Below are positions 20,672 through 23,328 of a stretch of 64,000 nt of DNA, in pieces. This DNA comes from Bacilli bacterium (GTDB lineage: Bacteria; Bacillota_I; Bacilli_A; RF39; UBA660), in assembly GCA_017612805.1 (NCBI GenBank), contig JAGAFD010000002.1, forward strand, positions 287 through 64,286, given 5' to 3'. The first letter of the stretch is position 1; every line of letters starts with the position of its first letter. Under the pieces are notes generated by a model, which was given only the letters and a program-made list of their open reading frames with translations, was not told where the DNA came from and searched no databases. Made by a program: the position numbers and the translations under genes.

Positions 20672-21922
20672 TTAGTATAAATTCGATTGATATATCGTTA
20701 TAACTGGACGAACACCTTTAGTAAATGACACTGGCATATCAACTATATATCCACCGTTTGTAACAAGCCAAGCGCGTTCATTATTCGATGCTAGTAGGGC
20801 CTTAGTCCAGTATCCATTTGGATAAGTTAACTCAGAAGCTGGGTATTCATAATAACAACCACGGGATATGCAATCTCTTGTATAGCTAAATAGCCAAGCA
20901 GCTTTTTGTTGGGCAGTGCTTGTTGGGCAATAAACTGGGCCGTCAGGTTCATCTTTTTCATGGGAACCAAAACACCACCAATTTTGTCCCTGCGTAGCAA
21001 AGTTAACGCTAAAACCTTGTTTAGGGTTAATAACTAATGATGCATCCATAATATCTTGAGCTGATGGAAGATCAACATTAATTACTGTACTCCAAGCTTG
21101 TTTAGTAGAATAACCAGGATGACCATAATTAAAGAATGCTATTGCATTATCCCAAGTCATAACTTTATTACTACCAACGGTATCAGAAAGGTTTTGTTCC
21201 ATAATTAATTTAACGGTATTTGTTGCACTATCTTTTTTAAGTAAATAAAAATTACGCGTAATGCCATCACCTAAACTACAACCATATTTAGCACCTATTT
21301 CACCATCATTACCATAAGTATTACTAATAAATTGACATAATTGTGCTTCTCTTGCATAAAGAGTATTATCATCAATTGCTTGACCTTCAACCCTTAAGCT
21401 TAAATAAACTTCATGACCAGCTTCGCTGTTTGGCGTATCTTCATCAGCCCAAACATATAACACGTGTGTTCTAGTATCACTAGGACTAATATAATCAGTA
21501 TATAAATCATAATAGGTAATGCCACTAACAACTCTAGTGGATAATTCCGATAAAGCATAATAATTGCTACCATCTAAACTTACCCGAATGTATTGATTAT
21601 CTAATAATGTGCCACTATAATTAGCTGGCGTTTCAATATATAAACTAACTTTATAATCATAATAATAACTACCAGTATTATTAATATCAAAATCATAACC
21701 ACCATCATAAGTGGCATCATAATCACTCATTGGATAAATTGGTCCAGATACTACTGAAGCACTTGATGGCATAGAAACAGAAAAAGAGCCGGTTCCAATT
21801 TCTACACTACCCGCCTCTTCTTCACTTTTAAAGAAAGCTAGAGAAGAACTAGCAATTGATAGCACCATTAAAATAATTATGATGGAAAAAAATGCTATTT
21901 GTTTTTTGATTAGCCTTCTCAT
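20672..21922 (-). CDS. TasA/camelysin-like secreted protein with SipW-type signal peptide and C-terminal extension
   Basis: 416 aa. N-terminus ...IIILMVLSIASSSLAFFKSEEEAGSVEIGTGSF parallels the TasA/CalY signal (…TWA|AFNDIKSK…). Immediately downstream of the sipW-like gene. Confidence 0.5.
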   Translation of the reverse strand: MRRLIKKQIAFFSIIIILMVLSIASSSLAFFKSEEEAGSVEIGTGSFSVSMPSSASVVSGPIYPMSDYDATYDGGYDFDINNTGSYYYDYKVSLYIETPANYSGTLLDNQYIRVSLDGSNYYALSELSTRVVSGITYYDLYTDYISPSDTRTHVLYVWADEDTPNSEAGHEVYLSLRVEGQAIDDNTLYAREAQLCQFISNTYGNDGEIGAKYGCSLGDGITRNFYLLKKDSATNTVKLIMEQNLSDTVGSNKVMTWDNAIAFFNYGHPGYSTKQAWSTVINVDLPSAQDIMDASLVINPKQGFSVNFATQGQNWWCFGSHEKDEPDGPVYCPTSTAQQKAAWLFSYTRDCISRGCYYEYPASELTYPNGYWTKALLASNNERAWLVTNGGYIVDMPVSFTKGVRPVITIYQSNLY

Positions 21923-21934
21923 AATTAGCTCCTC

Positions 21935-22669
21935 CTATTGTTTTAATTTAGGCAACTCCATAATTTCGTCATCTAAATCAATCTTCAAGAGTTTAGCTTG
22001 AAGCTCTTTTTTACGTTTATTATTACCAAATTTAATTTCTTTGTTATTTGATGCTTCTTCTACCTCATTAACTTGTTTATTAATTTTTAACATTCTAATT
22101 AATTTAATAACATCAGTTATTAGAATAAATACCGCTGGAATTAAAATAACTAATAACCATCCACCACGACTCGCTAAGAAATATTGAATACGGCCTAATT
22201 GTGGAATACGTAATTTTACTTTACCAATAACATTATCTTGTACTACTAATGAAGTATCTTCAGTTTCATTACTATCACCTTTAGTAGTAAAGTAATATTT
22301 ATTACCAACTTTTTTAATATTAGTGATACGGTGAGTAACTGTCATTCCTTTTGATATACTTGATTCTGATTTAAAGGTAATTACTTCTCCTACTTTTAAA
22401 GAACGATAATCTTTAACCGGAACATCAATTATTACATCATATACTTTAATATTAGGTTCCATAGAAGGACTAATAATGGTATATAAAGAGAATAATGGTT
22501 CATAACCTCTACCTTTTTTAGAATAACGATAATTAGCAAAAACATAATATAATAATGCTATTGCAATTAATAATAATAAAATAAATACAGTCCAAGATAT
22601 AACATCACCAAAAAATTTGATAATACCTCTAAAAGATCTGTATGTTTCGCCCTTTTTATTCTTGCCCAT
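21935..22669 (-). CDS. sipW: Signal peptidase I, SipW type (archaeal/eukaryal-like S26B)
   Basis: 244 aa. SPSMEP catalytic-Ser box; ...MTVTHRI...TKGDSNETED... matches B. subtilis SipW (VTHRI...TKGDNN); C-terminal TM anchor. Confidence 0.8.
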   Translation of the reverse strand: MGKNKKGETYRSFRGIIKFFGDVISWTVFILLLLIAIALLYYVFANYRYSKKGRGYEPLFSLYTIISPSMEPNIKVYDVIIDVPVKDYRSLKVGEVITFKSESSISKGMTVTHRITNIKKVGNKYYFTTKGDSNETEDTSLVVQDNVIGKVKLRIPQLGRIQYFLASRGGWLLVILIPAVFILITDVIKLIRMLKINKQVNEVEEASNNKEIKFGNNKRKKELQAKLLKIDLDDEIMELPKLKQ

Positions 22670-22712
22670 ACTATAATCACCTTATCATTATAATTATATA
22701 TTTTATTTAATA

Positions 22713-22735
22713 TAAAAACAAGTATTTGTACTTGT
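22713..22735 (-). terminator. Putative intrinsic terminator/attenuator between the 194-aa gene and sipW
   Basis: Hairpin acaagta-tttg-tacttgt (7-bp stem, 22718-22735), followed on the minus strand by TTTTT (complement of 22713-22717). Confidence 0.4.
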
Positions 22736-22743
22736 TTTACATC

Positions 22744-23328
22744 TTAATCGACATTTTTAACAATTAACTGACTAATAAATGTATGACCCATATCCACTGA
22801 TTGATCAACATTAGCATTTAGGTATTCAACATATATTGTTACGTTATGTTTTTCTAATGATGCCAATGAAACATTATTAATTATAATGCGATCAGTAGTT
22901 GGAATCATCCCTTTTGCTACCTCTACGCCATTAATATTTACGTGATAAATTAAATCTTCTAATCTTACAAAGTCATTTTTAACAACTTGCCATAATAACT
23001 GATATTTTAAATCTACATCACTTGCATTAGTAATAACAATTTCTTTGTTATTACTACGCCATCCTGGTAAAATGCTTGTCGTTGGAGCAATCTCACTACC
23101 AGTAGGATAAACCACTTCAATAATTTTAGTAGTTGATGATGGATTATTTTCTTTGCTACTATCATCAATATCAACCGGAGGATTAGGTTTATTAGTTGTT
23201 TTTAGACGATAAAAAGAGAATGTGGTGGCAAAACTAGCTAACAAAAAACATAACGCAAACAAGATGAACAATAATAGTTCATCACGTTTAGATTTATGAT
23301 TATCATTTGCCTCATATTCTCGATTCAT
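22744..23328 (-). CDS. Secreted/membrane-anchored protein in TapA-like position upstream of sipW
   Basis: 194 aa. TM then ...LLASFATTFSFYRLKTTNK... Sits where tapA sits in B. subtilis tapA-sipW-tasA. Confidence 0.4.
   Translation of the reverse strand: MNREYEANDNHKSKRDELLLFILFALCFLLASFATTFSFYRLKTTNKPNPPVDIDDSSKENNPSSTTKIIEVVYPTGSEIAPTTSILPGWRSNNKEIVITNASDVDLKYQLLWQVVKNDFVRLEDLIYHVNINGVEVAKGMIPTTDRIIINNVSLASLEKHNVTIYVEYLNANVDQSVDMGHTFISQLIVKNVD

Follow-up and report, generated by a model that had tools for sequence, protein, structure and literature searches.

A SipW-type signal peptidase gene between genes for two TasA-like proteins, one of them with a C-type-lectin-like module, in an uncultured low-GC member of the Bacilli

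The DNA analysed here, called the window below, is a stretch of 64,000 nucleotides (nt) of contig JAGAFD010000002.1, from a metagenome-assembled genome (MAG) of an uncultured gut member of the Bacilli with 27% guanine plus cytosine (GC); in blocks of 2 kb the GC content varies between 22 and 32% across the window. On the minus strand a gene for a SipW-type signal peptidase is placed between the genes of a 194-amino-acid (aa) protein and a 416-aa protein, both of which have a TasA-like beta-domain. The initial annotation of this locus proved right about the three open reading frames (ORFs), which are all on the minus strand, and every motif that it quoted was located. The features are listed below, with the slash in a motif marking the predicted cleavage site.

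20672 to 21922, minus strand: gene of the 416-aa protein, a bimodular protein with a SipW-type signal, a TasA-like carrier and a C-type-lectin-like module (from the ORF list; NCBI MBO4245178.1, 'hypothetical')
21836 to 21922, minus strand: its signal and transmembrane region, residues 1–29, ending in SSSLA29, with the predicted SipW site A29/F30 (transmembrane segment 3–33)
21791 to 21835, minus strand: residues 30–44 (FFKSEEEAGSVEIGT), a candidate N-terminal donor strand
21374 to 21790, minus strand: residues 45–183, the carrier of the TasA/camelysin superfamily, a predicted beta-sandwich (all-beta, predicted local distance difference test, pLDDT, about 81–90)
20675 to 21337, minus strand: residues 196–416, the C-type-lectin-like module with six Cys, a putative ligand-binding or adhesin domain
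21935 to 22669, minus strand: gene of the SipW-type peptidase, 244 aa (from the ORF list; NCBI MBO4245179.1, 'signal peptidase I')
22454 to 22471, minus strand: SPSMEP, residues 67–72, with the presumed catalytic Ser69 (motif located)
22325 to 22339, minus strand: VTHRI, residues 111–115, with the presumed catalytic His113 (motif located)
22268 to 22285, minus strand: TKGDSN, residues 129–134 (GDSN 131–134), with the conserved Asp (motif located)
22744 to 23328, minus strand: gene of the 194-aa TasA-like paralogue, with a 14-aa cytoplasmic N-region, a transmembrane segment, ATTFS/FY, a Pro/Ser-rich spacer and a 125-aa beta-domain (from the ORF list; NCBI MBO4245180.1, 'hypothetical')
23215 to 23328, minus strand: its signal or anchor region, residues 1–38, with the predicted site S38/F39 (transmembrane segment 15–40)
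22756 to 23130, minus strand: its TasA-like beta-domain, residues 67–191 (PGW...ITN.S...W...DQ..D.G.TF)
23360 to 24934, minus strand: gene of a 524-aa membrane protein, polytopic with about 5 transmembrane segments and with an ectodomain of the DUF4352 type, a conserved neighbour of uncertain membership (from the ORF list)

The gaps between the successive ORFs are short, 31 nt between the 524-aa and 194-aa genes, 74 nt between the 194-aa gene and the peptidase, and 12 nt between the peptidase and the 416-aa gene, and a Shine-Dalgarno-like sequence precedes each of the four, so that a single operon is plausible. A convergent gene ends 14 nt past the 416-aa ORF. A scan for promoters and terminators was uninformative in DNA of 27% GC, with 75 promoter-like sites as compared to 67 expected.

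Related loci were retrieved by similarity to the peptidase alone, that is, with sipW as the bait, and, apart from a few bins with other labels, the 33 that were obtained come from MAGs of gut bacteria whose labels are Bacilli, Tenericutes or Erysipelotrichaceae. A TasA-superfamily gene on the same strand lies within 1 kb of sipW in 30 of them. The gene arrangement is kept in the L001/L002 relative, where the homologue of the 416-aa protein is 48% identical, and in L038, and synteny is preserved at 48–54% identity among these relatives. Identity to the L001 orthologues is 71% for the peptidase, 50% for the 194-aa protein and 69% for the 524-aa protein. The gene content around sipW is highly variable among the relatives. 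The sipW loci L012, L014, L020, L032 and L034 were found in bins labelled Phocaeicola vulgatus or Muribaculaceae; they are of the low-GC Bacilli type, and the labels probably reflect binning contamination and not true Bacteroidota genes.

Judged by its sequence, the 244-aa protein is a signal peptidase I of the SipW, or endoplasmic reticulum (ER)/archaeal, type (MEROPS S26B), as had been proposed. It matches the model TIGR02228 (sigpep_I_arch) with 104 bits, the cut-off being 51.85 (E = 6.7e-30, model positions 7–156 of 158), while the bacterial LepB-type model TIGR02227 scores it at 18 bits only. The equivalog model for Bacillus SipW, NF046067, gives 101.4 bits, under its cut-off of 190. Since the first cut-off is passed and the last one is missed, the enzyme should be seen as SipW-type and not as an orthologue of the Bacillus SipW. 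Transmembrane segments are found at residues 15–49 and 163–196, followed by a C-terminal tail that is charged and about 50 aa long, and the SPSMEP, VTHRI and TKGDSN motifs are all present. Their Ser, His and Asp are presumably the catalytic residues, a reading taken from what is known of ER-type signal peptidases, which are Ser/His and not Ser/Lys enzymes.

The 416-aa protein has the motifs SIASSSLAFFKSEEEAGSVEIG at residues 22–43, WLFSYTRDCISRGCYYEY at 343–360 and GVRPVITIY at 403–411, and it matches no Pfam family (E ≤ 0.1), no NCBIfam family and no PDB sequence. An AlphaFold2 model of the monomer (pLDDT 82.7) consists of a transmembrane helix, a disordered stretch at residues 24–44, a beta-domain at 45–183, a short helix and a domain at 196–416. 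This layout leaves only about 155 aa for the TasA-like part once the predicted cleavage is allowed for, and makes the 'extra' part about 221 aa. The description of the protein as an enlarged TasA thus holds as regards its N-module, which belongs to the TasA/camelysin superfamily, and not as regards the size of the TasA-like part; the supposedly unexplained extra domain of roughly 150 aa is instead the whole of residues 196–416, with a C-type-lectin-like fold. Full-length homologues were found in 7 cases, and 14 further proteins match the C-terminal 53–60% only. P0002, a 648-aa protein on a 2.2-kb metagenome contig, has one TasA-like module followed by two lectin-like modules in tandem.

In an exhaustive HMMER search the N-module (residues 1–190) found 428 cluster representatives at E ≤ 1e-3. 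Among the best 150, 49 are stand-alone proteins (≤250 aa) and 90 are longer than 350 aa, and the cargo in the long relatives includes BspA-type leucine-rich repeat, ALK/LTK glycine-rich, DUF6273 and Big_13 domains. Weak Peptidase_M73 matches were seen in 8 of 42 stand-alone members of the family. The sipW neighbours of the related loci provide the connection to known families: many of them are 190–260 aa long with a signal of the '...VGATFAYFTA...' kind, and 2 of the 10 that were tested exceed the cut-off of 22.5 for PF12389 (L003:3844-4512 at 27.2 bits and L005:597-1229 at 22.8). The first of these is also the one neighbour that passes TIGR04088, the model for the SipW-cognate signal (22.5 vs 19), and others of the tested neighbours gave sub-threshold matches to the BsaA family (TIGR04090) and to TapA.

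When the N-module family (alignment A2) was compared with these canonical camelysin-type neighbours using hhalign, the probability was 98.4% (E = 5.8e-15) and the alignment was in register across the signal, with SSSLA/FF opposite GATFA/YF. The family of the 194-aa protein (alignment A3) gave 99.5% (E = 1.6e-22) against the same neighbours and 95.7% (E = 8.8e-9) against the N-module family. On the strength of these profile comparisons, the N-module and the beta-domain of the 194-aa protein are homologous to the TasA/camelysin (Peptidase_M73) superfamily. The link is transitive, since the proteins of the window have no direct family match and are connected only through the sipW neighbours; the comparison with Peptidase_M73 and TasA profiles that the initial annotation had in mind was thus negative when done directly and positive at the profile-profile level. 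Profile searches of the PDB with alignments A2, A4 and A5 gave chance-level matches only, AbpX at E = 1 with A2 included. The best Foldseek match in the PDB to the full 416-aa model was 7ueg_A, AbpA, with a probability of 0.99 and E = 1.3e-3, at a template modelling (TM) score of only 0.38 and a high root-mean-square deviation. AbpA is the bundling pilin of Pyrobaculum calidifontis and a donor-strand homologue of TasA (PMC9245690).

The signal of the 416-aa protein had been said to mimic the cleavage context of TasA and CalY, and the register of the alignment with the GATFA/YF neighbours agrees with this, the cleavage as such being a prediction. A motif [ST][YF][AS] followed by a hydrophobic residue is present at the end of the transmembrane segment in 123 of the 150 best N-module representatives, with SYALF as the commonest form. 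TIGR04088 was not matched at E ≤ 1 by the first 40 or 60 residues of either the 416-aa or the 194-aa protein, and the GFxxxE methylation (N_methyl) motif of type IV pilins is absent from the 416-aa protein. Residues 24–44 are the sole stretch with a pLDDT below 50 in the monomer model; this disorder would suit a donor strand without being evidence of one. In position, residues 30–44 would match the donor strands that TasA and BsaA have (PMC10151520, PMC11580942). An isopeptide lock of the BsaA type would need a Lys in the donor strand, and this Lys is not conserved across the N-module family when alignment A2 is inspected.

The 194-aa protein was thought to occupy the position of tapA. The gene order agrees with this; homology to TapA was not found, as the domain is TasA-like and the protein has no match in Pfam (E ≤ 0.1), in NCBIfam (the TapA model TIGR04087 included) or among the PDB sequences. 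In TapA a long signal region precedes the mature form, which begins at residue 44 and the N-terminal strand of which primes TasA (PMC10151520). The beta-sandwich fold of TapA differs from that of TasA (PMC9245690), and with a TasA-like domain in the 194-aa protein the resemblance to TapA is therefore positional, perhaps functional, and not one of homology. At the end of the transmembrane segment G[AT]T[FY]S[YF] is conserved in alignment A3, by inspection similar to GATFA/YF. We infer that the protein is cleaved at S38/F39, and from its sequence it may also be an uncleaved anchor. The spacer between the signal and the beta-domain ranges in this family from about 25 aa, as here, to more than 400 aa of repeats of the DxDGDGxPDxNID type, which look like calcium-binding repeats. 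The homologues L025:3859-5796, L023:4125-5930, L029:1665-2837 and L020:1038-2216 illustrate these variable spacers, which appear as if they formed a stalk of adjustable length.

Modelled alone, the C-module of the 416-aa protein reached a pLDDT of 90.8 and a predicted TM score of 0.90. Its best Foldseek match in the PDB was 8q4e_A, the C-terminal domain (CTD) of Legionella Lcl, with a probability of 0.99 and a TM score of 0.57 on the target, followed at low probability by the C-type-lectin-like domains of snake-venom snaclecs, CLEC12A, Mincle and CD94. The module itself has no match in Pfam. Of its 21 homologues, 8 weakly match each of Lcl_C (PF07603, DUF1566) and DUF6273 (PF19789), the best E-values being 0.0029 and 0.0094, and P0041, a more distant member of the family, is above the DUF6273 cut-off (27.1 vs 23.5). 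The model, together with these matches, gives the C-module a C-type-lectin-like fold that is similar to Lcl_C and DUF6273. Lcl-CTD is a glycosaminoglycan-binding adhesin domain of this fold (PMC11162425).

The C-module is not confined to TasA-like carriers. It is also fused to the N-termini of type IV pilins (P0008–P0011, P0014, P0018 and P0022), and it is found alone behind a plain N-terminal anchor in proteins of 257–285 aa. The C-module of P0004 (L038:3885-5147), which has a TasA-like carrier, is 74% identical to that of P0008, which has a pilin carrier, and the two are near-identical over the last 110 or so residues. As read from the sequences, this mosaic suggests that genes from two unrelated filament systems have recombined recently.

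The window has two type IV pilin-like genes of its own, 4–5 kb upstream of the SipW module on the minus strand, at 26974 to 28155 (393 aa) and 28236 to 32411 (1391 aa). Both proteins start with GFT[IL][AV]EL; the longer one matches N_methyl at E = 5.8e-7 and also has Listeria-Bacteroides repeats (Flg_new), and the shorter one has weak matches of the ComGC/ComGD type. Their sequences resemble those of modular pilins. Within the window, genes for a pilus ATPase, a platform protein or a prepilin peptidase were not found. P0014 (L036:9001-10200) was tried as a positional orthologue of the pilin-like gene and rejected, because it lies in an unrelated housekeeping neighbourhood.

Taken together, we find it reasonably likely, with a probability of about 0.6, that the locus encodes a SipW-dependent surface fibre or matrix module of the TasA/BsaA/camelysin kind, in which the 416-aa subunit displays a lectin-like adhesin. 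Both flanking proteins would be exported by Sec, and the dedicated ER-type peptidase would then cut them just past the transmembrane segment, at the predicted sites SSSLA29/F30 in the 416-aa protein and TTFS38/F39 in the 194-aa protein. By analogy with TasA, BsaA and AbpA, the N-terminal strands that are freed in this way may complement the beta-sandwich of an adjacent subunit by donor-strand exchange. The 416-aa subunit would consist of a carrier (residues 30 to about 185) and the lectin-like module (196–416), which the polymer, or at least the cell surface, would present to a putative ligand, probably a glycan or a host or partner surface. The 194-aa paralogue would most likely be the initiating, anchoring or stalk subunit, and in that role a functional analogue, not a homologue, of TapA. 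Operons with several paralogues have been suggested to assemble heteropolymers, and BsaA with a FAST domain fused to its C-terminal end is exported and surface-exposed (PMC11580942), which suggests by analogy that a C-terminal cargo is compatible with a subunit of this type.

Several observations weigh against such a fibre. The main one is that the short canonical 'GATFAYF' subunit of the camelysin type, a shaft subunit that is common beside sipW in related loci, is absent at this locus. The top 50 fold matches of the 416-aa model do not include TasA, the match to AbpA has a low TM score, and neither the 416-aa nor the 194-aa protein directly matches Peptidase_M73, TIGR04088, TapA, BsaA or a PDB sequence. 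Furthermore, the fold of the C-module does not alone establish glycan binding, since Lcl-CTD lacks the canonical carbohydrate-binding motifs (PMC11162425).

The missing shaft subunit makes a non-polymeric adhesin a serious rival. The 416-aa protein would in that case be a monomeric surface adhesin, with the TasA-like sandwich as its stalk between a membrane anchor (or a cleaved signal) and the lectin-like head, no fibre, and the SipW-type peptidase maturing or releasing it, and we give this a real but clearly smaller chance. That the lectin-like module exists alone behind a simple anchor, and so may function without a polymer, speaks for it, as does the weak fold match to a filament subunit. 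It accounts less well for the N-module, which is homologous, signal included, to the camelysin/TasA-type proteins beside sipW in 30 of the 33 loci and has a post-cleavage segment that is conserved and is disordered in the monomer model, as would be expected of a donor strand. The stand-alone occurrence of the N-module at about 180–200 aa (the 49 of the 150 best representatives) would also be odd for a mere stalk.

It is improbable that the enzyme is just the housekeeping signal peptidase of a reduced genome and that its neighbours are incidental secreted proteins. The label at NCBI is merely 'signal peptidase I', there is no second signal peptidase within the window, and the relatives are small-genome Bacilli of the 'Tenericutes' kind, all of which would fit; however, the TasA-superfamily genes stay beside the peptidase in 30 of 33 loci though the wider neighbourhood differs, and these neighbours share a conserved, family-specific motif at the cleavage position. 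A housekeeping and a dedicated role of the peptidase are not mutually exclusive.

The tests of family membership largely refute a literal tapA-sipW-tasA orthologue, with the 194-aa protein as TapA and the 416-aa protein as an extended TasA, which we consider improbable. The gene order is the same, accessory protein, peptidase and large subunit, the match of the peptidase to the SipW equivalog model is full-length, and the long signal region of the 194-aa protein is like that of TapA, mature from residue 44 (PMC10151520). Against this, the equivalog score of 101 is far under the cut-off, TIGR04087 is not matched by the 194-aa protein, the domain of which is homologous to the TasA-like family (99.5%), TapA having a different beta-sandwich fold (PMC9245690), the TasA-like part of the 416-aa protein has about 155 aa where mature TasA has 234, and the gene content near sipW varies widely in the relatives. 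A role of the TasA-like modules as metalloproteases of the camelysin type, which the Pfam name of the superfamily link (PF12389, 'Camelysin metallo-endopeptidase', Peptidase_M73) would imply, is very hard to believe, given that this label is deemed a likely misidentification of CalY (PMC11580942), that no metal-binding or catalytic motif was found in the modules, and that their predicted fold is an immunoglobulin-like or jelly-roll sandwich.

One of the closest known systems is sipW-bsaA-bsaB-bsaC of Clostridium perfringens (PMC11580942), where a non-Bacillus Firmicute likewise has a dedicated SipW-type peptidase, two remote TasA paralogues and a protein with an adhesion-type domain, vWA in BsaC and lectin-like here. 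A connection to type IV pili is also seen in both, as the export of BsaC and BsaA is pilin-dependent, and the pilin-like genes of the window are 4–5 kb away and type IV pilins in related metagenome sequences share the lectin module. The differences are that the adhesion-type domain is separately encoded in C. perfringens and fused to the TasA-like module here, that the gene order is not the same, and that TIGR04090 is matched only below its cut-off and only by neighbours from other loci. The tapA-sipW-tasA operon of Bacillus subtilis (PMC9674648, PMC10151520) shares the gene order, the ER-type peptidase, a subunit signal that fits the camelysin-type cleavage context in register, the long signal of the upstream protein and presumably the donor-strand logic. 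In contrast to B. subtilis, the peptidase described here scores under the cut-off of the SipW equivalog model, a TasA-like paralogue takes the place of a TapA homologue upstream, and the TasA-like module is about 155 aa, not 234, with a lectin-like domain of 221 aa added.

AbpA of P. calidifontis (PDB 7UEG; PMC9245690) is the best solved fold match of the N-module, and its partner AbpB, a multi-domain protein of 410 aa with distal domains proposed to be FimH-like adhesins, represents the same idea of a carrier plus an adhesin. The archaeal pair lacks a dedicated signal peptidase, AbpB has an N-domain that is TapA-like and not TasA-like, and its distal domains have no relation to the lectin-like module. 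In Streptococcus sanguinis the pilins PilB (vWA) and PilC (lectin) also join a small polymerising carrier through a short linker to a bulky C-terminal module (PMC8179133, PMC9934059), the carrier there being an alpha-helical pilin with a class III signal and a prepilin peptidase, unlike the TasA-like beta-sandwich and SipW-type peptidase of the window. Lcl-CTD (PDB 8Q4E; PMC11162425) shares with the C-module the C-type-lectin-like fold and the hallmarks …LP..Q[DE]I…, GYW[TS] and …AW.V…GVRPV. The C-module exceeds Lcl-CTD by about 90 aa and has a beta extension at its N-terminal side as well as six Cys, whereas Lcl-CTD is without disulfides, and Lcl is carried by a collagen-like trimer and not by a TasA-like module. 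By analogy, a design with a carrier and a variable binding cargo fits the N-module family, and it parallels the modular type IV pilins (PMC8179133) and the tip adhesins of the FimH type.

A wider reading, which we put forward tentatively and consider somewhat less probable than its opposite, is that these proteins are undescribed 'modular TasA-like pilins', that is, SipW-matured donor-strand fibres with swappable modules, the lectin cassette of which recombines with type IV pili. The 194-aa family, with spacers from 0 to more than 400 aa, would then be a stalk or anchor of tunable length.

Among the neighbouring genes, the 524-aa protein was considered as a further TasA-like component and is listed here as a neighbour, hhalign to the TasA-like module giving 61% only. 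It is a widespread type of membrane protein with at least 261 homologues, some with PF11611, and its NCBI name is 'DUF4352 domain-containing protein'. At 69% in L001 it is better conserved than the TasA-like proteins (about 50%), and its homologue adjoins the sipW module in only some of the loci. It belongs to a string of minus-strand genes at 23360 to 26939, for a bPH_3 protein, a 371-aa anchored protein, a LysM protein and the 524-aa DUF4352 protein, which lies upstream of the SipW module both here and in L001, L003, L008, L013, L014 and L038. On the other side, the gene convergent with the 416-aa gene (20133 to 20657, plus strand) encodes a 174-aa anchored protein without family match, and a 566-aa protein with WG_beta_rep repeats is encoded at 18339 to 20039 on the minus strand. 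These two genes hold their positions beside the module in L001, L002 and L038.

The protein encoded at 4785 to 5267 (160 aa) had been named as a possible further SipW substrate because of its SLFFKSGKD, which is present at residues 31–39. This candidate was dropped, as the E-value of 0.013 against the signal profile is unremarkable and similar to or worse than those of the unrelated anchored proteins at 57756 to 58574 and 15906 to 16904; the protein also has no TasA-like domain, no Pfam family and no significant NCBIfam family. Its gene lies 2 nt from another one, the 674-aa product of which is a membrane protein with a GGDEF domain at the C-terminal end (E = 6.7e-17); both genes lie within 2758 to 5267 on the minus strand and are probably co-transcribed.

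Elsewhere in the window, a 781-aa protein (6418 to 8763, minus strand) has an N-terminal TIR domain (TIR_2 E = 8e-13; ThsB_TIR E = 1.5e-7), a transmembrane segment and repeats similar to those of a beta-propeller, features by which it is possibly a defence or NADase-type protein. Two small proteins of 117 and 112 aa (44747 to 45448, minus strand) have N-terminal hydrophobic segments, one of which reads HGWGLAEMLLLIALLL, and these proteins, which have no family match, may from their sequences be degenerate and pseudopilin-like.

Operons in which sipW is linked to several remote TasA paralogues have been documented widely across bacteria and archaea, non-Bacillus Firmicutes included (PMC11580942), and as a module the locus is therefore of a known type. 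For the same reason the non-Bacillus context to which attention had been drawn is real, the host being an uncultured Bacilli MAG, and is not in itself unusual. What appears to be undescribed in the searchable literature is the compact TasA-like carrier, invisible to Pfam and mostly fused to a cargo, this lectin-like cargo on a TasA-like carrier, and a cargo common to TasA-like and type IV pilin carriers. As the N-module family is large (428 representatives) and unannotated in Pfam and NCBIfam, a model of the family would re-annotate many 'hypothetical proteins'.

The locus is probably an adhesive variant of the TasA-type fibre systems. Such fibres are known mainly as biofilm scaffolds of Bacillus and Clostridium and as bundling pili of archaea, and the members of the Bacilli discussed here come from host-associated sources, namely the rumen and the rabbit, chicken, mouse and human gut. 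We know of no characterised adhesion organelles in these small-genome lineages. If the lectin-like module is displayed on a fibre, it would imply that the TasA/SipW system also serves as an adhesin-presenting pilus in uncultured small-genome gut Bacilli. One binding module used across TasA-like and type IV pilin carriers would extend the tinkering seen in modular pilins to unrelated types of filament, and the shared C-module would offer a testable handle on the ligands that these gut bacteria bind.

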